Positions 11,187 through 30,875 of a stretch of 64,000 bases of DNA are shown here, in pieces (the first letter of the stretch is position 1; each line of letters starts with the position of its first letter). Location of the stretch: the IMG/VR virus record IMGVR_UViG_3300027710_000009, one strand, 5' to 3'. The translations under genes and the position numbers were made by a program. The stretch is from a virus. Taxonomy: Duplodnaviria > Heunggongvirae > Uroviricota > Caudoviricetes. Below the pieces are notes generated by a model, which was not told the origin of the DNA, did no database searches, and worked only from the letters and a program-made list of their open reading frames with translations.

Positions 11187-11221
11187 AGAGATATAATAGC
11201 ATATATTTATCTCTGTGTCAA
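11187..11221 (-). promoter_or_regulatory. Composite promoter of rnh: sigma70 promoter with nested TAAATA and an inverted repeat; leaderless mRNA predicted
   Basis: TTGACA (11221-11216), 17 nt, TATTAT (11198-11193); predicted +1 = 11186 = A of ATG. TAAATA at 11209-11204. Inverted repeat AGAGATA/TATCTCT spans 11187-11214. Confidence 0.75.
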
Positions 11222-11227
11222 GCGGTG

Positions 11228-14103: not shown

Positions 14104-14614
14104 CAGAGATTAATTTAACACGTGGATGCTCGTCACCCAGTAAATTTTGATACTTGTTTGTGGGATCATTGCGCAACCAGTCAGCAGTCCAGGCATACAC
14201 ATACTCAGCAAATGCTTCACAACCCACAGCAGGCATCATTACCAATTTTGCCACACCTTTGTTGCCTACAGGATGTACCTGTACTTCATCTGCTTTTCCG
14301 TGCATGTCTTTGATTGCACTCCACCCAGCCATCTTCTGAAAATGCTTGAGCAGTGGGTCATCTTCTGCAACAATCATGGTATGGTCAAATGTTTTTTCAA
14401 GGAACTCTTTGACTTCGTCTAGGCCGCCAAAGTCTTGTACCCAATTACGTTCATCAAGTTGTTCTGCTTCGAATACAAATTTGAAACCTAAACTGTATCC
14501 ATGTAACAGACTGCAATGACTATGCGTTGCGGCATGTTGACGGAAGGTACAGCTTAGGCCTCGATCGTTGCCATAAGTTTTTGTGCTAAATCTACGTGAC
14601 ATTGAAAACTCCAA
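14057..14614 (-). CDS. queD: 6-carboxy-5,6,7,8-tetrahydropterin synthase, copy 1 (start probably 14602)
   Basis: SHCSLLHGY, NWVQDFGGL, FDHT, VGCEAFA, VFEHAGN. Confidence 0.85.
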   Translation of the reverse strand: MEFSMSRRFSTKTYGNDRGLSCTFRQHAATHSHCSLLHGYSLGFKFVFEAEQLDERNWVQDFGGLDEVKEFLEKTFDHTMIVAEDDPLLKHFQKMAGWSAIKDMHGKADEVQVHPVGNKGVAKLVMMPAVGCEAFAEYVYAWTADWLRNDPTNKYQNLLGDEHPRVKLISVEVFEHAGNSAIYEG

Positions 14615-14633
14615 GAGTAGTTGAAAGTAATGT

Positions 14634-14662
14634 AGTATAACATTAAACTAGGTATTAGTCAA
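14634..14662 (-). promoter_or_regulatory. Sigma70-type promoter dedicated to queD copy 1
   Basis: TTGACT (14662-14657), 17 nt, TATACT (14639-14634). Confidence 0.7.
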
Positions 14663-15161
14663 GCAAGTTTTCATTCCATTCGCGATGACCTTCGCGGAAA
14701 GCCATATTGCTTTGGGTTTCACGCACTTCCACACGATAGCACCACAAACGGGCGGCTTCGCTTGGACCCCACATGTCCGGAATGTAAACACCATTCACAT
14801 ACTTGTACAGCATGTCACTTAGTCCTTCACATCCTAGTCGTGGTAACACCACAATCTTGGCCATGTTCTTTTCTTGTAGCAGTTTGAATGTGGCCATTTC
14901 TGGATCATCTTGTGCTACGATCAAGGTGTGATCAAATTGATCTTCCAGGATCTTCTTGAGTTCTTTGAGTCCGCCATAGTCTGCGGCCCAGTTACGAACG
15001 TCTAGGTCATTGGTTCCAAAATAGAACTTCATTGAGAATGAGTAGCCATGTATTAGATTACAATGACTGTCACTCCTCCATTGACGATAAGCGCATGGGA
15101 ATGCGTCATGATACTCTTTGGTGCTTTGGTATTTGTATACCACTGGTTGTAGTGCTGACAT
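14655..15161 (-). CDS. queD: 6-carboxy-5,6,7,8-tetrahydropterin synthase, copy 2
   Basis: SHCNLIHGY, NWAADYGGL, FDHT, LGCEGLS, VRETQSN; TAAATA box upstream at 15245-15240. Confidence 0.85.
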   Translation of the reverse strand: MSALQPVVYKYQSTKEYHDAFPCAYRQWRSDSHCNLIHGYSFSMKFYFGTNDLDVRNWAADYGGLKELKKILEDQFDHTLIVAQDDPEMATFKLLQEKNMAKIVVLPRLGCEGLSDMLYKYVNGVYIPDMWGPSEAARLWCYRVEVRETQSNMAFREGHREWNENLLD

Positions 15162-15242
15162 GCTGTTTCTCCTATGTTGTGTAGCATAGGCTGGCAGAGT
15201 TTGATATAGCGGGGTGAAGCCAAGGCCGCTTGGAACAAGTAT

Positions 15243-15731
15243 TTATCGTGGGCTAGGGCCACCTGTATCATCTGCGCCCACTGGGTCAGGCCCTAGTTCC
15301 TTTTTGAACTTTTCTGCGGCATGCACACGTTGACGAAGTTCGCTAGAACTGAAACTGTGATCACGACCATTGAAATACAATTCAATGCCTCGCTTGTGAC
15401 AAATTTCACGACCTGTAAACTCTTTGCCTTCGTATTCCACACCCAAGATACGTACATCAATTGGTAATGTGAGCAACAAGTCTTCAAGATCTTTTTCTGT
15501 GTTGTAGACCCAAACTTCATCCACAAACTTGCAACCTTCTAGTTGTAGTTGTCGTTCTACAATACTTTGAATAGGTTTGTTTTTTGTTGAACGATCCAAT
15601 GTGGGATCGTTTTGTAACCCTGCAATCAAATATTCGCAGTGCTCTTTTGCTTCTTTGAGCATGGCAATGTGCCCTGCATGTAGCAAATCAAATGTTGAGG
15701 CTGTGAAGCCAACTTTCTTACTGTTTAACAT
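15243..15731 (-). CDS. HxGH nucleotidyltransferase (glycerol-3-phosphate cytidylyltransferase/TagD-like)
   Basis: GFTASTFDLLHAGH, KPIQSIVER, VDEV, FSSSELR. Confidence 0.8.
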   Translation of the reverse strand: MLNSKKVGFTASTFDLLHAGHIAMLKEAKEHCEYLIAGLQNDPTLDRSTKNKPIQSIVERQLQLEGCKFVDEVWVYNTEKDLEDLLLTLPIDVRILGVEYEGKEFTGREICHKRGIELYFNGRDHSFSSSELRQRVHAAEKFKKELGPDPVGADDTGGPSPR

Positions 15732-15734
15732 CTT

Positions 15735-16295
15735 TTAGTTCTCCCACCAATTTTCCCAAGGAAACACAATCCAACATGGTGTTTCCTGTTTGTTAATTTC
15801 TGTGCCGCAGTAGTCCACATCTTGGAAACCGCTGGATAGATTGTCTACCATCACAGCAAAGCGCACACTATCATGCCAGATATCTGCCCAGGCTGGATCT
15901 TTGGGCAAGCAACCACTTGGCCAGTCTTGTTTGATGTAGTTCAATGTGCGACCCGAGTCATTGATATCGTCAACAACAAGAATCTTCTTGCGCAGGGCAG
16001 GATCGGTTGTGACTCGATCTGCAGGCGCTGGCAACTCAGTACCTTCATATGGCACATAACCAAACGCATCTTCGGCCATCCACAAATTGCTTTCAGGACC
16101 AAGGTCGTTGTCGCGAAAGCTGATGTTCAAGGTATGCATGGGCACATCAAGATAATGACTCAGCATAGTGGCAGGCACAAGTCCGCCACGTGTGATACCT
16201 GCAATGTAGTCTGGGCGCCAGTTATCCTGCGCCATGTCTCGAATGATCTTATGCACCCAGGTGTTTAGATGTTTGTTGTTGTGAATCAGTTTCAT
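15735..16295 (-). CDS. Type I phosphoribosyltransferase (purine PRT-like)
   Basis: IAGITRGGLVPA, ILVVDDINDSGRT PRPP loop, WIVFPWE. Confidence 0.85.
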   Translation of the reverse strand: MKLIHNNKHLNTWVHKIIRDMAQDNWRPDYIAGITRGGLVPATMLSHYLDVPMHTLNISFRDNDLGPESNLWMAEDAFGYVPYEGTELPAPADRVTTDPALRKKILVVDDINDSGRTLNYIKQDWPSGCLPKDPAWADIWHDSVRFAVMVDNLSSGFQDVDYCGTEINKQETPCWIVFPWENWWEN

Positions 16296-16627
16296 AGTTG
16301 AGGCTCCGGTACCTTACAGTCGTGGTTGATAATGTTGTCTATATACTTCATAATAAAAAGGCTGGCTTCTGGTGCAAATTCTTCGCGCAAGTGAATGATG
16401 TAGGTGCCACTACCATCGTTGAATTGGTGGCTCCAGTCACCCTTGCCCATGCGTATGCGATAGTGCTTGTCAGTTCTATGCCGGCCTCTGTGCGTGTGGA
16501 ATTCATCGCTAATTTCCTGTGCTTCAGCACCCATCATGACCCAGAAGTCTACCATCTCTTGAGAAAGAGCATTGGTATGAATCTTAAACGGACGAAGTGC
16601 TACTACGCCGGGTGAGATAATCTTCAT
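16292..16627 (-). CDS. Hypothetical protein
   Basis: Co-oriented ORF, ATGA overlap. Confidence 0.5.
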   Translation of the reverse strand: MKIISPGVVALRPFKIHTNALSQEMVDFWVMMGAEAQEISDEFHTHRGRHRTDKHYRIRMGKGDWSHQFNDGSGTYIIHLREEFAPEASLFIMKYIDNIINHDCKVPEPQL

Positions 16628-17054
16628 TGTGTTCCCAATTTGTTTTTGGATCTTTGCCTGTTAAGAATCCCCATTCACGAGTATGCGGTCCAGGCATAAA
16701 CAATGTCCAGGCAGTTACGCCAGGATCCAGTTCGATGCGATGATAACTGCTAGCACTGCAAGTGCGAAAGTGTCCGGGCCCACGCCAGTGACGAGCTTCT
16801 CCAATTTTAATACCAGTTGAGTTAAACTCCGGAATCCATTCATAATAACCACCTTTCAAGATCAGTGTTGCATACGGCCAAGGATGATCATGAACATCAT
16901 CTGGGTCGCCTTTTAAGAACTTGTGTAAAAATACATTGAACGGAAAACGTTCACGCTCTTTGAGAAACAGGTAATAGCGTTCCAAGTATGGCTCGTTGTT
17001 GATACGATCATATATGATACGTTTACGCCCTAGACGTTCAAGTAATTTTAACAT
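16584..17054 (-). CDS. Cupin-like metal-binding protein
   Basis: LHKF...DVHDHPW...LILKGGYYE...YHRIEL resembles cupin HxH...E...H. Confidence 0.55.
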   Translation of the reverse strand: MLKLLERLGRKRIIYDRINNEPYLERYYLFLKERERFPFNVFLHKFLKGDPDDVHDHPWPYATLILKGGYYEWIPEFNSTGIKIGEARHWRGPGHFRTCSASSYHRIELDPGVTAWTLFMPGPHTREWGFLTGKDPKTNWEHNEDYLTRRSSTSSV

Positions 17055-17571
17055 TTTTTGTTCCTACAGACGAACCTTTGTAGCTGGATTTTAACAGATC
17101 TTCCACACGTTCTGCAACCGTTGATGTTGCCGTTGATGTAACAGGAGGAACTGCACCAAATCCTACGTCTGAGGTTCCGCCTTGTGCCCAGATGGTTCCC
17201 GGAGGATAAGTTCCAGGTTGTGGCGGCCAACCAGTGCCTCCACCTGTGTTAGGCACAATGGTGGGGTGTACATAAGGGCCAAACGGCATGCCGCCACCTC
17301 CAAGTCCTCCGCCAGGGTAGACCCTCTTGTTCTGTTGGTCCGACTCAAGTCTTTCCAACCTCCGAAGTATTGTATGTTGGTCTTCAAACATACGGCGCAT
17401 TGGGCCATTACGTCGATCGTGTTGTGCATGGTTACGAGCCAACGCACAAATAACCATTAGATGCTGTAGTGTCTTTTGCACACTAGGATCATCACTAGTA
17501 AGTGCTTCATCAAACAAGTCAATGAATGCTTCTAGATCAAAGTCTGCCGAATCTTTTTCTCTATGGCTCAT
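17038..17571 (-). CDS. Hypothetical protein with Pro/Gly-rich C-terminal half
   Basis: Co-oriented 177-aa ORF. Confidence 0.55.
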   Translation of the reverse strand: MSHREKDSADFDLEAFIDLFDEALTSDDPSVQKTLQHLMVICALARNHAQHDRRNGPMRRMFEDQHTILRRLERLESDQQNKRVYPGGGLGGGGMPFGPYVHPTIVPNTGGGTGWPPQPGTYPPGTIWAQGGTSDVGFGAVPPVTSTATSTVAERVEDLLKSSYKGSSVGTKNVKIT

Positions 17572-17572
17572 G

Positions 17573-17803
17573 TTACCACTCCGATGCTGAATTGTCGTCT
17601 AGATATTTGTCAACCATTGCATTTGCTTCTGCAAGGTCTACTGCGTGTACGGTAAATGTCATCATTCCGTCTTTGATTGCAATGTCAAATGGCACTTTTC
17701 CACCAAAGATAAAACTCTCAGGCTGAGGTTTAATGATGCGGAACTTCTGCATCTTACGAGCCCTCTCGATTAAGTTTTGTGCAAATTCCGCGGCATTTTT
17801 CAT
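17573..17803 (-). CDS. Hypothetical protein
   Basis: Co-oriented ORF, ATGA overlap with folE. Confidence 0.55.
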   Translation of the reverse strand: MKNAAEFAQNLIERARKMQKFRIIKPQPESFIFGGKVPFDIAIKDGMMTFTVHAVDLAEANAMVDKYLDDNSASEW

Positions 17804-18570
17804 CTTGGTGCAAACTCCTGTTGTAGTTTAATGTTGTCAAAGAATTCCTTCTTTGTATTACCATCGTCCTTGAATGCACCTTTAAGCACAGTAGTCTGTG
17901 TTAAACTAGAGTGTGCCATGATGCCGCGATTCTCACAGCATCCGTGCGTGGCTTGAATATACACACCTAGGTCTGTGGCTCCTGTGGCTTTTTGTATTTC
18001 TCGTGCGATGTCATTGGCCAGTTCTTCTTGTAAAGTACCACGCCTAGCACACCACTGAGCAATGCGAGTATACTTAGATAAACCAATGAGCTTTTCGGCA
18101 GCGATGATTCCAATATAGGCGACCCCAGTAACTGGTTGATGATGATGACTACACATACTGCGCAATTCACTGCGTACAACCAACATGCCTTCGTAACGGT
18201 CTGTTGAATCATTAGGAAATGCTGTTGCGTCTGGTGCTGTGTCATATCTACCTGCCATTATTTCATTGAAGTACATCTTGGCCAGGCGTCGGGCTGTGCC
18301 TTGGCTGTTGGGATCGGTTTGTCGATCAATTAGTAGCGTGTCTAACACAAGTTCAAATGCCGCTGTGGCTTCGTCAATCAATTGCTCTTTGGCTTTGTCA
18401 TCAACATAGTCACTGATGTTGTCGCCTGCCCAGAAACGTTTTTTGTCTCTGTTCATTTTGAATGCGATCTGTTTGTGTGCTGTACCTAGTTCGTAGCCGC
18501 CATCGCCTGCCATGGCATCCAGTGCTGTTTCGTCTGGATCGTTGCTAATGTATACTTTGTTGTATGTCAA
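17800..18570 (-). CDS. folE: GTP cyclohydrolase I
   Basis: TARRLAKMY, SMCSHHHQP, IGLSKYTRI, LQEEL, HGCCENRG; probable TTG start at 18570 after GGAG. Confidence 0.92.
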   Translation of the reverse strand: MTYNKVYISNDPDETALDAMAGDGGYELGTAHKQIAFKMNRDKKRFWAGDNISDYVDDKAKEQLIDEATAAFELVLDTLLIDRQTDPNSQGTARRLAKMYFNEIMAGRYDTAPDATAFPNDSTDRYEGMLVVRSELRSMCSHHHQPVTGVAYIGIIAAEKLIGLSKYTRIAQWCARRGTLQEELANDIAREIQKATGATDLGVYIQATHGCCENRGIMAHSSLTQTTVLKGAFKDDGNTKKEFFDNIKLQQEFAPR

Positions 18571-18610
18571 TTTGTTCTCCGAGTTAATAGTCGTGGATGA
18601 CTTTGTTTGT

Positions 18611-18639
18611 ATTGTAAGATTATTTAGATGATTTGTCAA
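18611..18639 (-). promoter_or_regulatory. Sigma70 promoter of folE with nested TAAATA
   Basis: TTGACA (18639-18634), 17 nt, TACAAT (18616-18611); TAAATA at 18626-18621. Confidence 0.7.
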
Positions 18640-19591
18640 TGACATGTGGTAGGTTATTATACCACTTCCAGGCTGATTCAATAATGGTCTTGAGGTCTGA
18701 ATGTGCAGGACTCCAGCCCAGCGTGGTCTTTGCCATTAGATTGCCTGCTACCAGTTGTGCTGGATCACCTGGTCTTGCTGGCGCCTTGGTCAGTTGCACG
18801 GTACCAACCAACTGCGCAACCAAATCAATGATCTCTTGATTGCTGGCACCAGTACCTGTGCCAAGATTCAATGCCATACATTCCTGCATGTCGCTCATGA
18901 GATACTGCACAGCCATAACATGTGCGGCGGCTAGGTCAGTCACGTGTACGTAGTCACGCACATGAGTGCCATCACCGTACAGTGTGAATTCTGTGTTATC
19001 ACGTACACTTTCCAATAGTCGTGCAATAATGTGTGTGGCACCAGGTTCTTGGCCTAGTTCACTGTCAAGATCTGCGCCGCAGGCATTGAAATAGCGTAGA
19101 CTTGCACTTTTCATTCCATATGCACGATTGTAATCAGTAAGCATGATTTCAATCATGGCCTTGCTAGTACCATACGGGCTCAGTGGACTGTATGGTGTGT
19201 GCTCGTATATGACCTTGGCATCCGGATTGCCATACACAGCGGCTGAACTAGAAAACACAATCACTGGCATCTTTTCCAACCAACGTGCCACATCCAACAA
19301 TGCCGCAGTCTTGGCCACGTTGTTGGTATAGTATTCAGCAGGATCACTCATGCTAGGACCAACAAGGCTGGTACCTGCTAGATGAATGATAGCATCTGGT
19401 TGTTCGTAGGCCAGTGCATCAAAACACACAGGACTATGATAGTCAGCTTCAATAAAGCGATCCATGTGCTTTATAGTATGTTCACGATGCACACGGTCAA
19501 GGCCAACTACTTCATAGCCGTCCTGCTTGAGTTGTTTGCACACATGGCTACCAATGTAGCCTGTTGCACCTGTTACAAATATTTTTGTCAT
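18620..19591 (-). CDS. galE: UDP-glucose 4-epimerase-like extended SDR
   Basis: VTGATGYIG, HLAGTSLVGPS, FSSSAAVYG, YGTSK, LRYFNACGA, RDYVHVTDLA. Confidence 0.82.
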   Translation of the reverse strand: MTKIFVTGATGYIGSHVCKQLKQDGYEVVGLDRVHREHTIKHMDRFIEADYHSPVCFDALAYEQPDAIIHLAGTSLVGPSMSDPAEYYTNNVAKTAALLDVARWLEKMPVIVFSSSAAVYGNPDAKVIYEHTPYSPLSPYGTSKAMIEIMLTDYNRAYGMKSASLRYFNACGADLDSELGQEPGATHIIARLLESVRDNTEFTLYGDGTHVRDYVHVTDLAAAHVMAVQYLMSDMQECMALNLGTGTGASNQEIIDLVAQLVGTVQLTKAPARPGDPAQLVAGNLMAKTTLGWSPAHSDLKTIIESAWKWYNNLPHVIDKSSK

Positions 19592-20565
19592 TAGCACTCC
19601 GAATCTAGAATAATTTTATCTAGTTCGTCACGCAGGTCTTGCTCGTCAGGATTGTAAGCAATACCCTGCCACTCTTTGATTTTGAGTTCTTCAGTGCCAC
19701 TGCCGTCTTCTTGCCAAGAACTAATCCAACGTGAGCCAGTCCATTTGGCCTGATGTGTGTAGCTGTTCTTACCAGCAGTCTTGATATTGTAAACACCTTC
19801 ACGCACAGGCTGAACTTTCTTTGGAAACCACTCAGTCATAGTGTACACAATGTCATCCATGTTGGTGTACTTTTCCCACTTGCCATCATTGTGTTTTTGT
19901 GAACCAGCAATGTACATGCCAAAGTCTGAACTCTTACCATCTGTGTTGCCACCGTTGTTGTCAATGTCTTCGTCGTCGTAGGTTACAGTATTGATAATTT
20001 CTTCGCCATCAACTTCGTCGTAACCCAAGCACAGTTTGGTAATATCAAAAGGTTCTTTGAGTTCAATCTCTCCTTCAAAGAATGTGCCTTTTTCATTACT
20101 ACTGCCAAGAAACACTACTGTACCGTCAGCTTGAGAACCAATCCAAACTTCGTCACCACATGACCAGTCTGGACCATCTTCACCACCGCCATCAATGGCA
20201 TCAAAACTCTTTTCAAATACAGCGTTACCGTTTTCGTCCAAGATTTGCAGTGTGCCAGCATTGCGGCTAACACCATGCACATGGCCCATGTTGTCGCAAT
20301 CGTACCATGAGCCTGGAGAAAATGGCCACATGTCTTCTGGAATGTTGTTGTCTTCTGCATAGTCACTATCCCAAGCAAAGTCACTTACATCTAGTCTACG
20401 TTGCTTGAAGTAATCGTAAATCTTGCGATCCACAGTACCCATGACTTTCTCGCCACCGTAGCCCCACATGCAGATGCTGTAGGTGCGTGGTGTAAACTTG
20501 AGCACTTGAATCAGACGCTCTTGTTCTGCAAGTTTTTCTGCTTCGGTTTGTTTCTTTGTTGCCAT
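19591..20565 (-). CDS. Hypothetical acidic protein
   Basis: 324-aa co-oriented ORF. Confidence 0.6.
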   Translation of the reverse strand: MATKKQTEAEKLAEQERLIQVLKFTPRTYSICMWGYGGEKVMGTVDRKIYDYFKQRRLDVSDFAWDSDYAEDNNIPEDMWPFSPGSWYDCDNMGHVHGVSRNAGTLQILDENGNAVFEKSFDAIDGGGEDGPDWSCGDEVWIGSQADGTVVFLGSSNEKGTFFEGEIELKEPFDITKLCLGYDEVDGEEIINTVTYDDEDIDNNGGNTDGKSSDFGMYIAGSQKHNDGKWEKYTNMDDIVYTMTEWFPKKVQPVREGVYNIKTAGKNSYTHQAKWTGSRWISSWQEDGSGTEELKIKEWQGIAYNPDEQDLRDELDKIILDSEC

Positions 20566-20567
20566 GA

Positions 20568-21263
20568 TTATTTTCTTTCGCCAAACAACTGTAACAAGTT
20601 TAGGAACAAATTGATAAAGTTCATGTACAAAGACAATGCGCCTGTTACTTCCACGGCTGGACTGGTGTCAACACTGACTTCTTCACGAATACGTTGTGTG
20701 TCGTATGCTGTTAGTCCCAGGAAGATGATAATGGCCAATGCACTGATAACCATCTGCATTACGGTACTACCAATAAAGATGTTTACAATGCTGGCAATCA
20801 CAATAGCAATCAAGCCCACAAACATCATCTGGCCCATTGAGCTTAGATCCTTTTTAGTAAAGTAGCCATAGCCACTCATCACCCCAAACAAGATTGCCGC
20901 ACCCATGAACGCACTAACAATTGACCCCATGTTGAACACAGCAAAGATCATGCTAAAGCTCAATCCCATAAGTGCCGCAAAGCCATGCAAGCATAGTTGT
21001 GCCACACCTTTACTGGGGTTGTTACCCAGAACATAGCTCACGCCAAAGATTGCCGCCAGCGGTGCAAAGATCACAATCCACTTTAGCACACCTGTAAAAA
21101 AGAATTGTAGCAACTCTGGACTGGTGCCTACAAAATAACTCACAAACATTGACACAAGCACAGCCAGACTCATGTGTCCGTATACACGACCCATTGCTGA
21201 GTTGATTTCGCTTGCAGAACGATAGTTCATTATGCCACCGTCTGTATAATTTGCTCCAAACAT
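20568..21263 (-). CDS. Bax inhibitor-1/YccA family membrane protein
   Basis: About 7 hydrophobic segments; TKKDLS, LTAYDTQRI, ALSLYMNFINLF C-terminus. Confidence 0.85.
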   Translation of the reverse strand: MFGANYTDGGIMNYRSASEINSAMGRVYGHMSLAVLVSMFVSYFVGTSPELLQFFFTGVLKWIVIFAPLAAIFGVSYVLGNNPSKGVAQLCLHGFAALMGLSFSMIFAVFNMGSIVSAFMGAAILFGVMSGYGYFTKKDLSSMGQMMFVGLIAIVIASIVNIFIGSTVMQMVISALAIIIFLGLTAYDTQRIREEVSVDTSPAVEVTGALSLYMNFINLFLNLLQLFGERK

Positions 21264-21264
21264 A

Positions 21265-21489
21265 TTAAATCTCCTTCTTGAGTATTGATACTAGTTTACA
21301 TTGTTCGTAGAGTTTTGTCAAGTCTACTGCACCACCAACGCCATCCTGAGCATAGTAGTTCATACCATGTCCCCAGGCATTTACTGTGTTTTGATAAACG
21401 TCGGTGGCGTATTCTGGACCAACTTCTTTCCACCAAAGTTCTTCCGTGAGCATTTGGTACCAAAGTTCAAAATCAAAATTTTGACTCAT
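21265..21489 (-). CDS. Hypothetical protein
   Basis: Co-oriented small ORF. Confidence 0.45.
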   Translation of the reverse strand: MSQNFDFELWYQMLTEELWWKEVGPEYATDVYQNTVNAWGHGMNYYAQDGVGGAVDLTKLYEQCKLVSILKKEI

Positions 21490-22663
21490 GTGTGTGCTTG
21501 CGGTAGTCTGTGCTCATACGCAACCATTGCTCGCCCTTGCCTTCAAGGATGTCCACAATACGATCAACTGTGCCATTGGTCCAGTCTGAAATCTTGCCTT
21601 GATTAGCATGCGGCTTACGAATTAACTTTTCCAACTTGCCAATAGCATCTTCCAGACTCCAGGGTATGTAAAGACGTTCTAGGTCGTTAGCAAAAGTCTC
21701 GGGAAAACTTCTATAAGCAGGGTAAAGAACATTAGTACCCAAAGTATCCGCTTCTGAAACTGTGTTAGATACCCAGTCTTGTAATGCACAATTAAACAAA
21801 ACCCTTGTATCAGCAAGCAAAGTATAGTAATCATTTTTCTCTAGGTCCTCGTAGATTGTAAGCAATCCACGTGCCTGCAGATCTCTGGTACGAGCCATGT
21901 AGCTGTCGTTGTTGCTTTTTAGTTTGGCACCAGAAAACAACGCAAACTCCAGGCGCTCACCTGGATGACGTTCTGCCCACAGCTCAATTAGATCCATATA
22001 GAAGTCTGGTTGCTTCTCTTGATCCCAACGTGCGGCAAAGCCCACACGGAATGCTCGTTTGTCAAATGGCTTGAGCTCACCTGGCACACGTTCACGTACT
22101 TCGCTCTTGCCAAATGCCAAGCCTGAAATATTGTAGACGGGAGCAGTCCAGCCCGCTACCTTCATGTGCATGACCATCTCTTCATTGGTAGCCAACACAG
22201 CACCACCAGAGATAGACACAATGTCATTGACCATGCGTTCATAGTCCATCATCCACTTGCCCATACCCCATACATGAACAAAGTCATCTGGATCAATTGC
22301 CTGCGCCAAACAGCGTACAAAAATACGTGGACGCATTTCTTGCGGAACTTGGTTGATAATGTAACCAAGACTTTCAAAGCCCGGCTGGAACATGTCTTCA
22401 AAGTAGATCACATCTTCACTGGTGACTTCGCCTTGTTGCATGAGTCGCACAAGATTCATCATCTGGCTCATGCCAAAGTAACTGCGACCGTGTGCATCTA
22501 ACACTTGACCCACAACAATCTTTTGACTGTTGTCTAGGGTCAAGCCTGGCACGTAGACTACATCTAGTCCACGTGCATCAAACACACGCTTGTTCCACTC
22601 TGTCAGTTGCAGAGTATATCGAGCCTTGTAAGACTCCAAGCCCATGTAGTATAGCTTACGCAT
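21473..22663 (-). CDS. GT-B fold glycosyltransferase (GT4-like)
   Basis: GFAARWDQEKQP (R..xxK), ALQDWVSNTVSEA (Ex7E-like), VLYP; likely start MRKLYY at 22663. Confidence 0.7.
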   Translation of the reverse strand: MRKLYYMGLESYKARYTLQLTEWNKRVFDARGLDVVYVPGLTLDNSQKIVVGQVLDAHGRSYFGMSQMMNLVRLMQQGEVTSEDVIYFEDMFQPGFESLGYIINQVPQEMRPRIFVRCLAQAIDPDDFVHVWGMGKWMMDYERMVNDIVSISGGAVLATNEEMVMHMKVAGWTAPVYNISGLAFGKSEVRERVPGELKPFDKRAFRVGFAARWDQEKQPDFYMDLIELWAERHPGERLEFALFSGAKLKSNNDSYMARTRDLQARGLLTIYEDLEKNDYYTLLADTRVLFNCALQDWVSNTVSEADTLGTNVLYPAYRSFPETFANDLERLYIPWSLEDAIGKLEKLIRKPHANQGKISDWTNGTVDRIVDILEGKGEQWLRMSTDYRKHTHESKF

Positions 22664-22973
22664 TGCGGTAGTTGCTCCGGAAGTTGTTGCCTTTATAACC
22701 ACCTTGTCCGCCTTCACGACGAGGACCTGTGTACGGCTTGCGTACTTCGTTGGGATCCTTGTTGGCCCAGTTCCATTGGTTCTTTGCGTAACCACGTTCT
22801 TGGAACTTCAAGAAGTCAATGAAGTCACGGTCACGTTCGTTGTACAGCGCAGCCTCATTAAACAGTCTGCCGTGACTTACACAGAACTCTTTGTACTTTT
22901 CTAGATCCTCATAGATCTGTTCTACTTCTGGCTTCATGCGAAGATATTTCTCTAGCCATTTAGGTTGTGCCAT
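22656..22973 (-). CDS. Hypothetical protein
   Basis: AGGAG RBS; overlaps the GT start. Confidence 0.6.
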   Translation of the reverse strand: MAQPKWLEKYLRMKPEVEQIYEDLEKYKEFCVSHGRLFNEAALYNERDRDFIDFLKFQERGYAKNQWNWANKDPNEVRKPYTGPRREGGQGGYKGNNFRSNYRNA

Positions 22974-22987
22974 CTTGATTTCTCCTA

Positions 22988-23431
22988 TTAGACGGGATGG
23001 TAAAAGGTTTTCTCGGGTTGACGTGGATCGCGGTATACAATCTCACATCCGTTTTCGTCGTCCTCGCTCACACTGAGTATAACATGTCTGCCAGGATAAC
23101 GCGAGTTGATTTGGACATATAAGTCATCTGCGATCATTTCGCAACTCTTATAGTCGAGTTGCAAACTATTTGGTTGTCCCGAATACAGTGATTCAAGCCA
23201 CCTTTTGAATTGAATAAATTCGATGTCCCTGTCGTTGTGGAAGACACTGATTGACACCCGGAAATGGAAAATATGGCGATGAGGATAGCCAAGAAAAGAT
23301 ACGTCTGCAAGTTTAGGATCCTCCAAGGCAGCGGGATATTTGTGAATGCCTTCTTTCTGGAACTTTACCCAGATCATGCGTTCTGCTACTTCGCTGTTGA
23401 TTTCAGTTTGTCTTCTTTCATCATATGTCAT
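22988..23431 (-). CDS. dpdL: QueD-like T-fold protein with LxxxHRHxF motif (DpdL-type, putative CDG decarboxylase)
   Basis: LGYPHRHIF = LxxxHRHxF; KSCEMIADDL and VSEDDENG T-fold motifs. The dpdL assignment rests on my recall of the published motif. Confidence 0.7.
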   Translation of the reverse strand: MTYDERRQTEINSEVAERMIWVKFQKEGIHKYPAALEDPKLADVSFLGYPHRHIFHFRVSISVFHNDRDIEFIQFKRWLESLYSGQPNSLQLDYKSCEMIADDLYVQINSRYPGRHVILSVSEDDENGCEIVYRDPRQPEKTFYHPV

Positions 23432-23943
23432 TTTATTACCTCGTCTTGAGTATATTTAGACCAGTCTGTAAACACAGCACGATTTTTTAGGTCATGTAAA
23501 CTGTGACACCATACGCCTGGATTTGTTGCTTCAAAATCTTTGTCGTCAATCTTGATAGTAGTGTTGTAATTGTATAGTTTGGCATAGGGCAATTTTACAC
23601 TGATCATTGGAATAAATCTAGAGTGATCAATTAGTGTGCCTTCAAGCAAACCTTCTGCGGCTGTTACGTCGACGTCTAGTGTACACCAGACTCCGTGCAT
23701 CAAACAGTTACCGATCATGGTTTCCCAACGTCGCCATTCATCACCATTGTTTGTGTCAGGATTGGTAAAACTTTGATTGGCACCAAAGTAGATGTGTTCG
23801 CAGTTGTTTTTTTGTGCCAGGCCCACTATACGTGCAGGATCTTGTACACCAATAACAAACAGTGTGCGCATGCCAAATGCCGGTGAGTGTTCTACTTCTG
23901 TTCCAACAAAGAAGTCAGCGCCATCGTGCTCTGGACGATCCAT
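23428..23943 (-). CDS. Unknown protein translationally coupled to dpdL
   Basis: EVEHSPAFGMRTLFV, HIYFGANQSF, KIDD...NPGVWCH; ATGA overlap with dpdL. Confidence 0.6.
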   Translation of the reverse strand: MDRPEHDGADFFVGTEVEHSPAFGMRTLFVIGVQDPARIVGLAQKNNCEHIYFGANQSFTNPDTNNGDEWRRWETMIGNCLMHGVWCTLDVDVTAAEGLLEGTLIDHSRFIPMISVKLPYAKLYNYNTTIKIDDKDFEATNPGVWCHSLHDLKNRAVFTDWSKYTQDEVIK

Positions 23944-24257
23944 TATGATACCTTTAGTGATTCAACGGTTATGATATGAGCAATGCTTTGCCCTAGATCT
24001 TGATCATCAGAAATAAGATGCAAGTTAGTGGTTGTGCGGTCGGTACGACGATCGTTGTATCGAACTTCCATTACATATCCATTTTCTGCACGGAACATGC
24101 GAAAGTTCAAGTCTGGGTTACTGTCCATGCGATCTCTTGACACTAACTCAGCGGTTTTAATTCCAATTGAGTTTAGAGTATAACTTTGTTTTTCATCTTG
24201 GGAATTCTCCCATGCTCGGCGCACTTTTTTAGCTATCCATTTATCAAACCAATTCAT
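23943..24257 (-). CDS. Hypothetical protein
   Basis: Co-oriented ORF with TAATG overlap. Confidence 0.55.
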   Translation of the reverse strand: MNWFDKWIAKKVRRAWENSQDEKQSYTLNSIGIKTAELVSRDRMDSNPDLNFRMFRAENGYVMEVRYNDRRTDRTTTNLHLISDDQDLGQSIAHIITVESLKVS

Positions 24258-24439
24258 ACTTCACCTTTGTGTTGCTGTTGCAATTTTTGGATTTCGTCTT
24301 TGTATTTTAACTTCTGACGCTTGAGTTCCGCAACCTTTGATTCGTCCACATGAGGATGACGTTCCATTTCGTTGAGTTTGAGATCAAGCACTCTGTGTGC
24401 TTCTTCCAAATGTTTAACACGATTTGTCCAATCACCCAT
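24254..24439 (-). CDS. Small coiled-coil protein (DUF465/YdcH-like)
   Basis: LEEAHRVLD...ELKRQKLKYKDEI. Confidence 0.55.
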   Translation of the reverse strand: MGDWTNRVKHLEEAHRVLDLKLNEMERHPHVDESKVAELKRQKLKYKDEIQKLQQQHKGEV

Positions 24440-24443
24440 TTGT

Positions 24444-26042
24444 TCACCCTCCGTGGTCAAGTCTAAGTATGTCTCCAAGTCTACTCTCTGCTGAATCTTT
24501 TGCCATTTCCTCATCTTGTTCGGTCTCCTCGGTTTCTTCTTCTACATATTCAAACAGCGCATTAAATTGCGTAAGTGGATTAACAGTCTTGTCACCTTTG
24601 AATCCACGTGTGCCAATGATGTCCATCCAATAGCGTTTGTAATATTCAATAATGTCCAAACTTGCTTGTTTAGTTGGCGCGGCAAAAATAGCGTCCACAA
24701 TGTCACGGAACTTGGCATGATCACCTGTGCGCTTTTTAGTACCTTCGTTCCACATCATGTTAGGCCATCGGCCTGCATCGTATTCACGATTGGCACGTTG
24801 TACTGCTTCGATGTGTGTCCACACGTTGTGTCCCATCATGAGTGCATAGCTGAAGCTGTCCCAGCTGGTCTTGCCCTCTTTGCCGATCTTGTTCAAATCG
24901 CCCGGCTTGTATATACATACATCTTTGATCTGTAAATGCTGGCTTATTGGGCTCTCGTCAAAATGCGGAAAGATTCCATCCTGTAGTACTACATCGCGGA
25001 ACATTCGTGTATCAACGGCATATTTTTTGTCGTCTGCACTTGGACTCATTCGATAACACCATTTATCATTGTGTGGCAAATCAATATGATGATACATTTG
25101 TCCATTAGCAGTGGCTAGAAAAGGACTAGCACAGTCAAAGCTGATAGTAAATGCAGGGTTAACGTATTTGCGAACTGCACGTTGAATGTCAGTGAGCAAG
25201 ACTGCCCACTCTAGTTTACTTGTGCCCAAGAAGTGCATCCAGTCATGAACTCCCTCTTGTAACAAGTTATCGTAGCGTAATGCTACCAGTCTGCGTAGCA
25301 CTAGATCTACGTCACACATGTTTTGACCACCCATTGACCAACCGTCAAAGTGAGTGTCAGGATATTTCACAGGATCACAATATTCCTTCATGGTCTGATA
25401 CCATTCTTCAGCTGAAGTATGATTATCGCCTTGTAGAACATTTAAGAATTTTGCACCGCCGTTCTTTTTTCCTTTACGATGTTTCATAAAGTATTCGTTA
25501 TTGAATTTGGTAGCGGCCACTGCTTCATCCAGTGTGGTAATCTGACAAGCCTTGCTAGCTTTCTTGTCGTGAATAACCCAAGTTGGAATATCCAAGATCA
25601 TTCCATAGTCGGCAATCTCGTCCAACCACTTTAGAACAGAACTGCGTTTCTTTTCAGCTTTGGCACAACCTGAATTGGCCTTCCAGTCGCCTTCCCACAG
25701 GCCCTTGGCAATCTGGAATCCACCAGAGTCACCTAGCATGAACGTACCTGGCTCACGCTTGCGAACCATGTCTTCACTAGGATCATCTTTGTTGAGATCT
25801 AGATTGGCATGACCACCCGAGTACAGGCTCCACTTGTATGGGAACAATGCCTTCTGACTGTTAAGCCAGTTCATCTGTTCCATGTCGGGCATTCCAGCTG
25901 GCATACGTGCAGGATCTATGTAGTCATTGTTCACACGCTGTTTGCCTATGAAGGTAGCATAGAAGCCACTGATAGCTGGCAAGAACACAGCATAGTCTAG
26001 CTGTTTGCTAGTTAGATCATCTTGTTCAGGCTTCTTGTCCAT
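24444..26042 (-). CDS. dpdA: TGT-fold 7-deazaguanine base-exchange enzyme (DpdA family, probably DpdA2-like)
   Basis: TGT motifs in order: LGDSGGFQ, MILDIP, VLQG, GWSMGG, MHFLG, SFDCASP. No C-terminal CxCxxC Zn site of tRNA TGTs. Confidence 0.8.
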   Translation of the reverse strand: MDKKPEQDDLTSKQLDYAVFLPAISGFYATFIGKQRVNNDYIDPARMPAGMPDMEQMNWLNSQKALFPYKWSLYSGGHANLDLNKDDPSEDMVRKREPGTFMLGDSGGFQIAKGLWEGDWKANSGCAKAEKKRSSVLKWLDEIADYGMILDIPTWVIHDKKASKACQITTLDEAVAATKFNNEYFMKHRKGKKNGGAKFLNVLQGDNHTSAEEWYQTMKEYCDPVKYPDTHFDGWSMGGQNMCDVDLVLRRLVALRYDNLLQEGVHDWMHFLGTSKLEWAVLLTDIQRAVRKYVNPAFTISFDCASPFLATANGQMYHHIDLPHNDKWCYRMSPSADDKKYAVDTRMFRDVVLQDGIFPHFDESPISQHLQIKDVCIYKPGDLNKIGKEGKTSWDSFSYALMMGHNVWTHIEAVQRANREYDAGRWPNMMWNEGTKKRTGDHAKFRDIVDAIFAAPTKQASLDIIEYYKRYWMDIIGTRGFKGDKTVNPLTQFNALFEYVEEETEETEQDEEMAKDSAESRLGDILRLDHGG

Positions 26043-26379
26043 GCTTCTTTTCTTCTAGTGTTAGTGCATCCATGATCTGAAACTGCTCCCAAGCACTCTT
26101 TAGTCCTGGGTGCCGCTTCATGCGATCATGCAAGTCTTTTTCTTCTTGCATCTTACGCCGTGCCCAATCAATGGCTTCTTGGGTAATAGGATCCAGGCTA
26201 ACAGTGGCATAACTGGTGCTCATGTTGATCCATGTTGTACCATCAAACACCTGCATGTCTGTTCCGTTGACACGGAGCATACCCTGTATGGGATTGCTGG
26301 CATTTGAGTTAACATACGGAACACTGGTGTTACCACCATCCACTACTACTCCGCGACTGCCCATTAGACCTTTAATCAT
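26026..26379 (-). CDS. Hypothetical protein
   Basis: Co-oriented ORF. Confidence 0.55.
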   Translation of the reverse strand: MIKGLMGSRGVVVDGGNTSVPYVNSNASNPIQGMLRVNGTDMQVFDGTTWINMSTSYATVSLDPITQEAIDWARRKMQEEKDLHDRMKRHPGLKSAWEQFQIMDALTLEEKKHGQEA

Positions 26380-27107
26380 TTTTGTTGTGCTGGCAATAGA
26401 TAGTTGTATTCAGCAATGCCGCTGTCCACAGTGATCTGCATCACCCCTTCGTCGCTGATCTTCATAGTCTTGTCACCACTCAATGCAAGAATGGCAATAA
26501 CAGAAGTCACTGGCCACGCCCATGCTTTGGTTAGTGTACCAGTTGCACCATCATGAAACACAAAGTTACCTGCATGTGAACTATGGTCACCAAAGAAAAA
26601 CTTCAATTGATTGTTTTCTGTTTTGGCAGTAAATGTATTTTCGTCGCTGTTGGCACTGGCTTGAAATCGCAAACGTTGAATGTTTTGTACTGTGGGATTA
26701 AACTCCACACTCCATTTAACATTTTTCATTTTCACGCTTTTGAGTTTGTCGTTCACAATCTCGCTGGTCATGAAACGATATTCATTCTTAAAGTCACCTG
26801 CTTTGTTTTCAAAGGTAATGCCAACTGGAACATCTGCACCATTGCGTTGTTGCATACTGATGCTTAGTTTAGCGTCTTCTTTGTATTCTGGAATGTTTAG
26901 AACTGTGTTTAGTTTGCCTAGATTAGGCATGCCAAATGTGCCAACAAACTCTGGCACAGGGTTCTTGAACTTGGCCTGTACAATCACACTACGATCTTCT
27001 GCGATAGAATCAATGGTGGTTTCTTGATCTGTGCCTGTAATTTTAACCAAATCAATCACACCCAGTGCGTGTGTGTGTTGTACGATGTCTTGTAAGTAAT
27101 CTTTCAT
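26376..27107 (-). CDS. DNA polymerase sliding clamp (gp45-like)
   Basis: 243-aa beta-rich protein near the polymerase, own promoter, C-terminal EYNYLLPAQQK. Family recognition only. Confidence 0.6.
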   Translation of the reverse strand: MKDYLQDIVQHTHALGVIDLVKITGTDQETTIDSIAEDRSVIVQAKFKNPVPEFVGTFGMPNLGKLNTVLNIPEYKEDAKLSISMQQRNGADVPVGITFENKAGDFKNEYRFMTSEIVNDKLKSVKMKNVKWSVEFNPTVQNIQRLRFQASANSDENTFTAKTENNQLKFFFGDHSSHAGNFVFHDGATGTLTKAWAWPVTSVIAILALSGDKTMKISDEGVMQITVDSGIAEYNYLLPAQQK

Positions 27108-28142: not shown

Positions 28143-30803
28143 TCAGTCAAATGTAAACAAACTATCAAACGTGGTGGCAATGTCAGTGTTTTCTGCAATG
28201 TTCCACTTTAGAACACCCAACAAGTTTTCTACCTTTTGATCCACAATGGTTGTCTCCATCAGTGCATCGTCAAACGGTAGTTCCTTGAACCATTGCGGAA
28301 TGTGCAGTTCATCAGTTGGATATCCAACTGAAGTATAGTTCAATGAATTTTCTTTCAGTTTACACACAATGGTTTTCATACCGTCTACAATGCTGGTGCT
28401 ATAGTTGTCACCGTGCATGCGTTTGAGATTGTTCCAGTTCATAGCCGCACGTACATGTCCTGGCATGTTGGCTTTGCCCAGTCTAGACTCTTCAGCAGTG
28501 TATTTGGTCAAGTTGTTCACACGTTTGGGTGTGCCTTTTTCCCAAGCAGGACGTTCTTGAAATGCAATCTTGAAGTCACGCACCTTGTCATAGATACCTT
28601 CCTTCTGTCCGCCTGTCAGCACATCCAACAACAGTTCGCTCAAGAAGTCTTGTACAACCTTGGGCGTGTCACTGCGCTTCAAGTCTAGACCCATGGCTTT
28701 AACTTTGCCTGGTTTGCCGTGTGTGTCTTGTCGCTTGCCTTCTAGGTCATAGATCAACAGTGCATAACGTTTCTTCTTGATAAACAAACTTTTCTCAGCC
28801 ACCAGCTCACGACCGCCTTTGATCAGTTCGCCCATGTTGCGTGGACAGTGGCAGGCCCGTTCCATGAATGCTGGAAAACTGGCGTTCACTTGATCTGCAA
28901 TGCTGTCGTACAGTTGCACACAGATGTTTTTGTTCCACTCCATCCTGCCAGCTTCAACATCTTCCTTCACAGCAGGCCACGCACTGAAGTAAGCAGAGTC
29001 AGTGTCTCCGTAGATGATTGCCTTGCCCACATGATCGTATTCTCCAAAGATGCACTCATTGATGTATGCATCCATGTGTCTGGCAATGATTCGTCCTGTA
29101 AGTGTAGTTGACTGACCAATACGCTTGTCAAAGAACCTACAACCTGGATTGAGAATAGCACCGTACAAACTGTTCAAGTTAATTTTCTTGACCAGCTGTC
29201 GTTTGTCCCAAAAGGCTTTGTCTTCATCTGTTTCTGCATCCTTCTTCTTGGCCTGCATTTCTTGACGTTCGCGATACCAACGTTCCAACAAGCCAGGGAT
29301 AACACCTTTCTTTTCATATGTCATGATAGTGCCGTTGGCAGTAAGGATCCAGGGCTTGTGACTGTCAAAGATCAGTCGCCAGACTTCCGCGGCTGAGTGT
29401 ACAGTTGATTCGCCCGACTCCCAATCAATGGTAAGTTCGGTGCCAGGACGATTTTCCATCACAGCAGTATATTCAAGAGTGCCAAACATGTTTTCCCAAG
29501 CATCAGCAAAACTGCTACCTGAGTCCATCTTGTCCTTGATATACTTGTCGGTCATTACTGGCCGGATCTGTCCAACGATTGTTTCTGGGCCCATGTTGCA
29601 GGCACGGATCGCAGAAGGATACAAGCTGTTGATGTCGATTGCTCCAACCCAGTCGTGCATGCCTGCTTTGGGGAAAGCAACATAGGCACCTGCCGCTTGT
29701 GTGTCACCATGATCATCTCTACCTTTTCTGTTGGGAACAATTAGTCCCAGTTGATGTGCTTCGTTGATAATAGCTTGCTCAGTAACTGCCACAGCACCCA
29801 TTGTGGTTTGTAGCAGTACAGTGTTTTCATGTGCTAGTACGTTTGCTAGATCCAAGAATTTAAGTTTCTTGTCCAGCTTGTTGAGTAGCATGGTATCTTG
29901 CCGGTTGTACACAATAAACTCGCGAAAGTCTTTGTTGTACAATTGATCCAGGGTGCCTTCGTATTGTGTCTTACGTTCATCCAGTTCGTATTCTGCAATA
30001 GCATCCAGGCTGTAGCTGTGACGTTCTTCATATGTGTACTTGCGATACAGTTGCATATAGTCCATATGCACACGACCAATCAAGTCAAACGTCAGTGTTT
30101 CAGCACCAAATCGCTCAAACATACGTTGCTTGGGCAGTTGTCCCCACAAGCAGAAACGGCGTGTGTCGTCTTTGCTCAACACACGTGTGATACGCATCAC
30201 AGTATAAGGGATGTCGAAGCCTTCACTGTTCCATCCGCTTAGGATATCAGCATCTTCAATCAAGTCTAGAAATGTGTTTAACAGTTCTTCTTCACGCTCA
30301 AATAGATAACAGTTATCAAATTGATCACATATCTCTTGTGCAGTTTCCCAACTCATGCTCTTGGGCGGGACAACCAAGGTGACCATCTTGTCCATCCAAT
30401 CCAAGTACACAGAGATTGCGGTAATAGCGTTGAAAGGATCTTCAGGTTTTGAGAATCCACGTAGTGGATCAAAGTCTACTTCAATGTCAAAGAATGCTGT
30501 TTGCAGTTTGGGTGATGTGGCACCTAGATAGTTTGTTTCCAAACAACGAAAAACAGGATTGATGTCACTTTCCCACAGGCGCTTGCCAGAGTTGACTTTT
30601 AGTTCTTTGTGGTATTCTTTTGAATTGCGGGTGTTGAAACGGCTTACTGGTGTGCCGTATATGGTTCGGTGTTTGCCTCGCGGATCATCATAATAAAAGA
30701 TGTAGTCTGCTGGAAACTCTCTGTACTCTCTTTTGCCGTCTACACGTTCTACCACGTGTATACGATCTTTATCTCGTTCAAACAATGCGTCGACGTAGCT
30801 CAT
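28143..30803 (-). CDS. Family B DNA polymerase (T4 gp43-like)
   Basis: Exo I FDIEVD, Exo II GWNSEGFDIPY, Exo III YNRQD; Pol A DINSLYPS, Pol B KINLNSLYG, Pol C YGDTDS; normal length, no intein. Confidence 0.95.
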   Translation of the reverse strand: MSYVDALFERDKDRIHVVERVDGKREYREFPADYIFYYDDPRGKHRTIYGTPVSRFNTRNSKEYHKELKVNSGKRLWESDINPVFRCLETNYLGATSPKLQTAFFDIEVDFDPLRGFSKPEDPFNAITAISVYLDWMDKMVTLVVPPKSMSWETAQEICDQFDNCYLFEREEELLNTFLDLIEDADILSGWNSEGFDIPYTVMRITRVLSKDDTRRFCLWGQLPKQRMFERFGAETLTFDLIGRVHMDYMQLYRKYTYEERHSYSLDAIAEYELDERKTQYEGTLDQLYNKDFREFIVYNRQDTMLLNKLDKKLKFLDLANVLAHENTVLLQTTMGAVAVTEQAIINEAHQLGLIVPNRKGRDDHGDTQAAGAYVAFPKAGMHDWVGAIDINSLYPSAIRACNMGPETIVGQIRPVMTDKYIKDKMDSGSSFADAWENMFGTLEYTAVMENRPGTELTIDWESGESTVHSAAEVWRLIFDSHKPWILTANGTIMTYEKKGVIPGLLERWYRERQEMQAKKKDAETDEDKAFWDKRQLVKKINLNSLYGAILNPGCRFFDKRIGQSTTLTGRIIARHMDAYINECIFGEYDHVGKAIIYGDTDSAYFSAWPAVKEDVEAGRMEWNKNICVQLYDSIADQVNASFPAFMERACHCPRNMGELIKGGRELVAEKSLFIKKKRYALLIYDLEGKRQDTHGKPGKVKAMGLDLKRSDTPKVVQDFLSELLLDVLTGGQKEGIYDKVRDFKIAFQERPAWEKGTPKRVNNLTKYTAEESRLGKANMPGHVRAAMNWNNLKRMHGDNYSTSIVDGMKTIVCKLKENSLNYTSVGYPTDELHIPQWFKELPFDDALMETTIVDQKVENLLGVLKWNIAENTDIATTFDSLFTFD

Positions 30804-30875
30804 AGTTCTCCTTTGTGCGACTTCTAGCTCACACACACTCTACTTGCTGTTTAGTGTCCAGCGTGACAAAAATAT

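Follow-up and report, generated by a model that had tools for sequence, protein, structure and literature searches.

A DpdL-linked family of GT4-type glycosyltransferases in phage deazaguanine gene clusters, with a candidate role in glycosylation of 7-deazaguanine

The enzymes FolE, QueD, and QueE make 7-carboxy-7-deazaguanine (CDG) from GTP. The α- and β-glucosyltransferases of phage T4 use a UDP-sugar to decorate a modified base, hydroxymethylcytosine (hmC), in the major groove. To our knowledge, all known glycosylated bases of DNA are pyrimidines (glucosyl- and arabinosyl-hmC, and base J), and the known 7-deazaguanine marks of DNA carry small groups at C7 or none. This text concerns a gene block in the IMG/VR virus record IMGVR_UViG_3300027710_000009 (Caudoviricetes; a giant phage of lake type), a stretch of 64,000 nucleotides that was analyzed as a whole and is hereafter called the window, in which a gene for a glycosyltransferase (GT) of the GT-B fold lies in one unit with a homolog of the deazaguanine gene dpdL. 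DpdL is defined by an LxxxHRHxF signature in place of the CxxxHGH of QueD (Cui, Hutinet et al., PMC10516641). In the DNA of Cellulophaga phage phiST, which has no member of this GT family, all G is replaced by plain deoxy-7-deazaguanine (dDG) (PMC10516641). Glycosylation of a 7-deazapurine is described for HuiG of the huimycin pathway of Kutzneria albida, which puts GlcNAc on the 2-amino group (PMC7439116), and the HuiG family carries the GT4-type Pfam domain PF13439 (bioRxiv 10.64898/2026.04.15.718813).

All genes of this region of the window lie on the (−) strand. The dpdL homolog (147 aa; 22988–23431) and the GT gene form a tight, overlapping unit with genes for a 171-aa protein (23428–23943) and a 105-aa protein (22656–22973), as an earlier note made from the sequence alone had described, and the ORFs match that description. 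The stop codon of the 171-aa gene and the start codon of dpdL overlap as ATGA, a ribosome-binding site (AGGAG) stands ahead of the 105-aa gene, and the GT ORF (21473–22795) has a likely ATG start at 22660, 8 bp inside the 3′ end of the 105-aa gene, which gives a protein of 395 aa (21473–22660). The unit was also said to lie just downstream of dpdA, and a gene for a 532-aa transglycosylase-like protein is indeed located upstream (24444–26042), its DpdA name depending on motifs and weak profile matches. Downstream of the polymerase, the order is clamp-like protein, 532-aa protein, DUF465 protein, and the 104-aa, 171-aa, 147-aa, 105-aa, and 395-aa proteins. These genes are taken to be real because each has thousands of metagenomic homologs and because their order is kept in 80 related viral contigs, in which the core order is polymerase, clamp, DpdA, DpdL, 105-aa protein, GT, FolE, QueD, QueD, QueE. 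No phage genome matched the locus in a megablast search. To judge from sequence assignments, the cluster combines QueC-less deazaguanine genes with interleaved nucleotide-sugar genes: FolE, two QueD proteins, QueE, and the DpdA-like gene form the context of DpdL, and no QueC match was obtained among the cluster ORFs scanned (10167–26042 of the window). We give roughly even chances to the proposal that the block extends the 7-deazaguanine DNA-modification pathway of the DpdL type, which has no QueC.

On the basis of its predicted structure, the 395-aa protein is a genuine GT-B, GT4-type glycosyltransferase, and this assignment is sound because the fold model, the aligned GT4 motifs, the conserved residues, and the family members that pass Pfam thresholds agree. 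A search of 1.84 billion representatives yielded 721 clusters of homologs at 50% identity, from which 77 diverse sequences were drawn for the alignment. The AF2 model built from this alignment has the GT-B fold (pLDDT 95.7, pTM 0.93), and Foldseek gave at least 500 PDB matches with E <1e-3 (TM up to 0.69). All of the 50 PDB matches listed are GT-B glycosyltransferases, mostly of GT4/GT5 type, and the best are glycogen synthase, MshA, BshA, PimA, and GlgM (about E 1e-11), enzymes of the GT4/GT5 retaining type; the identity to MshA, BshA, PimA, and GlgM is only 9–14%. When the GT profile is aligned to PglH, GlgM, and MshA, the donor motifs SRlDkEKqP and QDwvS..llEA coincide with theirs, the former pairing with GRLqpfKGP of MshA and the latter with the GT4 EX7E stretch. 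Arg211, Glu215, and Lys216 are invariant, and Asp295 and Glu303 nearly invariant, among the 77 sequences; Arg211/Lys216 and Asp295/Glu303 fall on these motifs, the C-terminal donor-binding signature. The N-terminal acceptor domain has invariant residues of its own (Arg14, Gln66, Asp89, Gly94, Asp126, Trp136, and Glu141). The window GT sequence alone has no match in Pfam, NCBIfam, PHROGs, or PDB sequences, and two family members exceed the cut-offs of the Pfam models Glycos_transf_1 and Glyco_trans_1_4, namely P0284 (PF00534, 27.7 against 26.4) and P0309 (PF13692, 34.8 against 27). Judged by the model and the conserved motifs, the enzyme looks catalytically intact and of the retaining type. A co-folding prediction of the GT with DpdL scored 0.00 and is counted neither for nor against any reading. 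The family member P0284 (L111, 1888–3855) is a 655-aa protein with a C-terminal extension of about 230 aa without a family match, and a dpdL gene lies 700 bp upstream of it.

The 147-aa protein is, by sequence, a DpdL homolog with a QueD-like T-fold and a putative CDG decarboxylase, in agreement with the DpdL-type label of the earlier note. It matches phrog_17812 (E 1e-36), its LGYPHRHIF motif fits the published signature, and His51, Arg52, His53, and Phe55 are invariant in 26 homologs. In tblastn searches it is 35% identical to CGPG_00067 of phiST (E 8e-10) and 57% identical to DpdL of Acidovorax phage ACP17, and it also aligns with the two QueD paralogs of the window.

The 532-aa protein is accepted, on motif-level evidence, as a divergent DpdA-like transglycosylase of the tRNA-guanine transglycosylase (TGT) superfamily, of the type of PA5oct EST35_0316. 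It has no match to the TGT (PF01702) or DpdA (PF23859) models even at E up to 5, and none in Pfam, NCBIfam, or PDB sequences; a profile of 24 homologs likewise found nothing among PDB sequences. The motifs LGDSGGFQ (Asp105), LDIP (Asp151), and FDCASP (Asp303) are invariant or nearly so in these homologs, and we take the three aspartates to correspond to Asp102, Asp156, and Asp280 of bacterial TGT. In hhalign comparisons, the match to ACP17 DpdA is weak (probability 55%, E 1e-4, 182 columns), that to the TGT-like protein of Burkholderia phage BCSR5 covers the DSGGFQ stretch (probability 41%), and that to phiST DpdA3 has a probability of 2%; the BCSR5 protein alone has no match among PDB sequences. 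Language-model features place the 532-aa protein near the TGT cluster (0.93) and the DpdA PF23859 cluster (0.89) of the Atlas, and it is 35% identical to the PA5oct protein at the same position, the DpdA slot.

The association of the GT with DpdL was followed in 80 close viral contigs, 12 contigs of a branch about 30% identical to the window GT, 3 single metagenomic contigs from distant GT representatives, and 18 isolate records. Among the 80 close contigs, DpdL accompanies the GT in 77. In the 30% branch, DpdL is directly beside the GT in 12/12 contigs, with FolE, QueE, and QueD; the two genes are neighbors in all three single contigs, and every one of the 18 isolates with a clear member of the GT family also carries DpdL. 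Six isolate lineages have the GT beside or within 3 kb of dpdL, namely Synechococcus phage BUCT-ZZ01, the PA5oct group, ACP17, Sinorhizobium phage Phosso, Xanthomonas phages BUDD/X1, and BCSR5. Over these 95 metagenomic loci and 18 isolates, dpdL is thus within a few kb of the GT in all but three loci, which are truncated or rearranged. The earlier note had named a GT that occurs independently of dpd genes as grounds for giving up its proposal, and this distribution does not refute it. Scans of viral contigs with the proteins P0348 and P0372 found no related loci.

The reverse relation does not hold, and the distribution is nested: members of the GT family occur with DpdL, whereas DpdL also occurs without the GT. 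A GT-family gene is absent genome-wide from the DpdL-encoding phages phiST, RHph_I1_18, Bakedbeans, Ahp1, D479, and MA9V-3, in searches in which positive controls were detected. In a tree of DpdL, phages that have the GT are interspersed with phages that do not, and well-supported branches force at least three changes; RHph_I1_18 and Ahp1, which have no GT, lie inside a clade (support 95/93) with eight sequences from phages that have it. This interleaving suggests that the GT is an optional step added after DpdL. In the simplest reading, DpdL has one and the same role throughout, and the GT carries out an optional later step which needs the DpdL product.

Some of the phages without the GT show other arrangements around dpdL. 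DpdL is the C-terminal domain of longer proteins in Vibrio phage Bakedbeans (gp176, 383 aa; L090, 9212–10363) and in Chryseobacterium phage MA9V-3 (293 aa; L094, 9431–10312), and the N-terminal domain of both fusions has no assigned family. In Rhizobium phage RHph_I1_18, whose DpdL is 62% identical to that of the window, the place of the GT immediately after dpdL is taken by a gene for a macro-domain (Appr-1-p processing) protein (L087, 10429–11253).

For the function of the block, the following scheme is proposed. FolE, QueD, and QueE would supply CDG, from which DpdL would remove the carboxyl group to give 7-deazaguanine (DG), and the TGT-like DpdA would swap DG for guanine in phage DNA. The GT would move a hexose from a UDP-sugar to the DpdL product, acting either on free DG before insertion or on dDG already in DNA, and the virion DNA would contain glycosyl-7-deazaguanine either way. 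The donor would probably be UDP-galactose or UDP-glucose, because the cluster contains GalE, a UDP-glucose 4-epimerase (18620–19597; TIGR01179, 299 bits above a cut-off of 262; Pfam Epimerase, E 8e-59), which is found in the cluster in at least 50/80 related loci, often directly after the GT, and likely supplies the sugar donor; a nucleotidyltransferase and a second epimerase in the same cluster would add to the sugar supply. Candidate linkages are C7, laid bare by decarboxylation, and the exocyclic N2 as in huimycin. A C7 linkage would account for the restriction of the GT to genomes with DpdL, and N2 is a candidate because HuiG is a direct precedent on a free 7-deazapurine. A hydroxymethylated pyrimidine is an unlikely acceptor, because ACP17 has no thymidylate-synthase-family gene and relatives have only one, scoring like canonical ThyA (366 bits). 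From this sequence evidence and the analogies with known enzymes, we rate at about fifty-fifty the proposal that the GT places a hexose on a 7-deazaguanine that ends up in DNA; the fuller statement, that phages with the DpdL–GT pair replace guanine with a glycosylated 7-deazaguanine whose sugar is on C7 or N2, falls a little short of an even chance.

Several points weigh against glycosylation of deazaguanine in DNA. DG has no hydroxyl group, so that the transfer would need to form a C- or N-glycoside, and we know of no precedent for C-glycosylation by a retaining GT4-type enzyme. The GT is acidic (pI 5.4; family median 5.75), its fold is no nearer to T4-type DNA glucosyltransferases than to generic GT4 enzymes, and its fold matches include GT4 enzymes that act on small molecules, such as the tetrahydrobiopterin (BH4) glucosyltransferase 5ze7. 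The decarboxylation of CDG to DG is a proposed activity of DpdL that was never demonstrated, even for phiST (PMC10516641). The contigs and isolates followed here are a small part of the 721 clusters of the GT family. No chemistry was found in the literature for phages that carry the GT; PA5oct DNA is resistant at restriction sites that contain G, and no chemistry is reported for this modified G (PMC12191111). Literature searches found no paper on glycosylated 7-deazaguanine in DNA, which bears out the statement of the earlier note that none is characterized in phage DNA. Lastly, a distant GT4 relative is encoded by Xanthomonas phage PhiXhv-15 (L095, 9878–10981; 82 bits to the GT profile), where it has GlmS and a BshB-like deacetylase as neighbors and lies 87 kb from the true QueD gene of the phage.

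The PhiXhv-15 gene was considered as a breach of the association between the GT and DpdL and was rejected, on its 82 bits compared with 130–470 and on its GlmS/BshB-like context, and because the phage has a true QueD with a CxxxHGY motif instead of a DpdL. The PhiXhv-15 relative belongs to another sugar pathway, in a phage with deazaguanine genes as well.

The acidity and the fold matches of the GT are also what an unlikely alternative would draw on, in which the product of the GT is a soluble glycoside that does not reach DNA, either a glycosylated pterin or a free deazapurine glycoside, formed from FolE/QueD/QueE/DpdL intermediates as a metabolite, a signal, or a host-directed inhibitor. GT4 enzymes acting on small molecules dominate the fold matches (among them BH4 glucosyltransferase 5ze7/5zer and 9v0w), FolE and PTPS-type enzymes also make pterins, and HuiG acts on a free base; however, the BH4 glucosyltransferase is only at rank 26 among the fold matches and shows no special similarity, and the GT family tracks DpdL, not FolE/QueD generally, and is always located in clusters with a TGT-like gene near replisome genes. 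A free-base glycoside could moreover still be a substrate for DpdA, which would merge this alternative with glycosylated deazaguanine in DNA. That the target of the GT is unrelated to deazaguanine (sugars of the host envelope, a phage protein, or a different DNA base), with only an early/replication transcription unit in common, is likewise improbable. GT4 genes that serve to glycosylate the envelope or proteins are numerous in phages, GalE and heptose-type genes are typical of lipopolysaccharide synthesis, and the PhiXhv-15 relative stands in a non-dpd context; against this, the GT stays adjacent to DpdL in at least eight phage lineages that are unrelated and differ in gene order and DpdA type, no clear member of the GT family was seen without DpdL, and the missing thymidylate-synthase family leaves ACP17 without a hydroxymethylase of that kind. 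It is quite improbable that these phages require the GT for the synthesis or insertion of plain dDG, for example by way of a short-lived glycosyl intermediate or with the GT assisting DpdA, and that their final DNA is like that of phiST: no dDG was obtained when ACP17 dpdL and dpdA were co-expressed in E. coli, for which the authors proposed that enzymes were missing (PMC10516641), and the GT that was left out lies between these two genes in ACP17, but the same experiment failed for phiST, which reaches full dDG replacement with no GT, DpdL proteins with and without a GT interleave and one from a phage with no GT, RHph_I1_18, is 62% identical to the window DpdL, and the GalE of the cluster points to net consumption of a sugar donor.

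If glycosyl-7-deazaguanine is indeed the product, it would be, as far as we know, the first sugar-bearing purine in natural DNA and a new class of hypermodification, made by a dedicated GT4-type family acting on a decarboxylated deazapurine. It would bear on the enzymology of a GT4 enzyme that forms a C- or N-glycoside on a nucleobase, on evasion of restriction and defense (e.g., END nucleases that sense the modified G of PA5oct), and on sequencing artifacts in the giant phages that abound in fresh and marine waters. In the case of ACP17 at least, the GT could be among the "other unknown enzymes" to which Cui et al. appealed for the failed dpdL and dpdA co-expression. The DpdL–GT pair is very common, to judge from the 721 clusters of the GT family, and cultured hosts exist.

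The 171-aa protein had been put forward as a candidate new Dpd enzyme. The motifs quoted for it (HIYFGANQSF, KIDD, and GVWCH) are real and conserved, and the label of a new Dpd enzyme is not yet earned, given its presence in only 40/80 related loci and its lack of a recognizable fold. The family has 6701 metagenomic homologs; His50, Phe53, Gly54, Ala55, Asn56, Asp133, Asp134, Trp145, and His147 are invariant in 41 of them, and the protein looks like an enzyme because many Glu, His, and Asp residues are invariant. Its AF2 model (pLDDT 89) appears to be an orphan fold: the best Foldseek match in the PDB has an E of only 0.04, wide VIA-align comparisons stay at Z ≤6.9, with rows for STAS, QueE, and partial TIM barrels that do not rise above background, and the only match among AFDB clusters is an unnamed homolog of 34% identity. 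The Atlas holds no usable match, and single-sequence searches of Pfam, PHROGs, NCBIfam, and the PDB also found nothing. The genomes in which the family has been seen (those of this lineage, the PA5oct group, ACP17, and contig L109) all encode DpdL as well as the GT, and it is absent from four GT-carrying lineages (BUCT-ZZ01, Phosso, BUDD, and BCSR5); in PA5oct, the homolog is 27 kb away from the cluster, among hypothetical genes. Its loss from half of the close relatives and from these four lineages, and its distance in PA5oct, indicate at best an optional tailoring or helper enzyme, so that it is a weak candidate for a new Dpd enzyme. Taken together, the reading of the earlier note stands for the GT, for DpdL, and for their linkage, and is weakened for the 171-aa protein.

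The 105-aa protein is basic (pI 9.2) and has a tail rich in Gly, Arg, and Asn. Its gene sits between dpdL and the GT gene in 74/80 related loci, a conserved position, whereas no gene lies between dpdL and the GT in BUCT-ZZ01, ACP17, and PA5oct. The protein has no family match, and it may be a lineage-specific, nucleic-acid-binding helper of the GT. A protein of 177 aa between the 105-aa gene and the GT in some loci was set aside as probably a low-complexity, Gly-rich cross-match.

Of the other genes, also on the (−) strand, the DNA polymerase gene (28143–30836) and the clamp-like gene (26376–27107) lie upstream of the 532-aa gene. Between the 532-aa and 171-aa genes lie genes for an 86-aa DUF465 protein (24254–24514; Pfam PF04325, E 6e-9), found in 23/80 related loci, and for a 104-aa protein without an assigned family (23943–24257), which is known as an ORF with homologs in 8/80 loci. 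A Bax-inhibitor-1/YccA-type membrane protein (20568–21263; PF01027, E 1e-54) is encoded between the GT and GalE genes and occurs in only 7/80 related loci, and is therefore probably an unrelated moron. The deazaguanine genes proper are those of FolE, GTP cyclohydrolase I (17800–18681; PF01227, E 2e-38); QueD/PTPS paralog 1, with a CxxxHGY motif (14655–15161; PF01242, E 2e-14); QueD/PTPS paralog 2 (14057–14614; PF01242, E 1e-14); and QueE, the radical-SAM CDG synthase (11880–12773), which matches NCBIfam QueE models at its N-terminus (E 1e-11) and is 42% identical to QueE of BUCT-ZZ01.

Interleaved with queD and queE, and variably present among related loci, are genes for an RfaE-domain-II-like nucleotidyltransferase (15243–15731; PF01467, E 5e-12; TIGR02199, 73 bits, below the cut-off), a short-chain dehydrogenase/reductase epimerase that resembles ADP-glyceromanno-heptose 6-epimerase (12770–13636; TIGR02197, 183 bits, below the cut-off of 275; PF01370, E 4e-28), and a HIT protein (13633–14103; below equivalog cut-offs). 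Together these three hint at a second nucleotide-sugar route, heptose-like or other. A type I purine phosphoribosyltransferase (15735–16295; PF00156, E 3e-15; weak xanthine phosphoribosyltransferase match) has homologs within the clusters of BUCT-ZZ01 (L001, 7078–7548) and PA5oct (L002, 11916–12377), and it could salvage the guanine freed by DpdA or make a deazaguanine ribonucleotide, like TubE in tubercidin biosynthesis. A 156-aa protein with a VHDHPW motif (16584–17054) has a weak lead to Atlas cysteine-dioxygenase and cupin clusters (0.82 and 0.78); it is the only oxygenase-like candidate in the window and could prepare an acceptor hydroxyl. BUCT-ZZ01 has a second GT4-like gene, UTS52035 (L001, 9007–10350; 447 aa; Glyco_trans_1_4, E 3e-5), located between folE and a gene for a 416-aa protein, upstream of dpdL and the GT, which suggests a disaccharide or two alternative sugars.

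The analysis adds four points: the GT is distributed in a nested and interleaved way with respect to DpdL, the 171-aa protein has accessory standing, a case is made against a hydroxymethyl-pyrimidine acceptor, and HuiG is brought in as a precedent. MshA, BshA, PimA, and GlgM are the best fold matches and share the R-x4-K and acidic-x7-E donor signature with the GT, but the low identity, the failure of the window GT to match any Pfam GT model, and the invariant residues of its own N-terminal domain set it apart from them. The T4 α- and β-glucosyltransferases (AGT and BGT), also GT-B enzymes encoded beside phage nucleotide and replication genes, are the functional analogy behind the hypothesis. 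The window GT has no specific affinity to AGT or BGT beyond the generic GT-B level and is not a member of their families: no T4 enzyme is among the 50 PDB matches listed for it, a cyanophage "DNA alpha-GT" ranks only eighth in BFVD, on a par with generic GT4 enzymes, and there is neither a hydroxymethyl group on the acceptor here nor a linked hydroxymethylase. HuiG and the dapiramicins are likened to this locus by Pfam family and by chemistry, with a GT4-type glycosyltransferase clustered with FolE, QueD, and QueE homologs; they differ in belonging to bacterial secondary metabolism, which proceeds via QueC and preQ0 with O-methylation and yields a free glycoside rather than modified DNA. The closest known system is the DpdL/DpdA3-type dDG pathway of phiST (PMC10516641). 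The phiST DpdA3, of 259 aa, shows no detectable similarity to the 532-aa protein of the window, the phiST DNA contains plain dDG, and phiST lacks the GT-family gene, GalE, and the 171-aa and 105-aa genes, all of which the window locus has. Both loci nevertheless encode FolE, QueD, and QueE without QueC, a DpdL that bears the LxxxHRHxF motif, and a TGT-like transglycosylase of divergent sequence, and in both these genes lie near replication genes.

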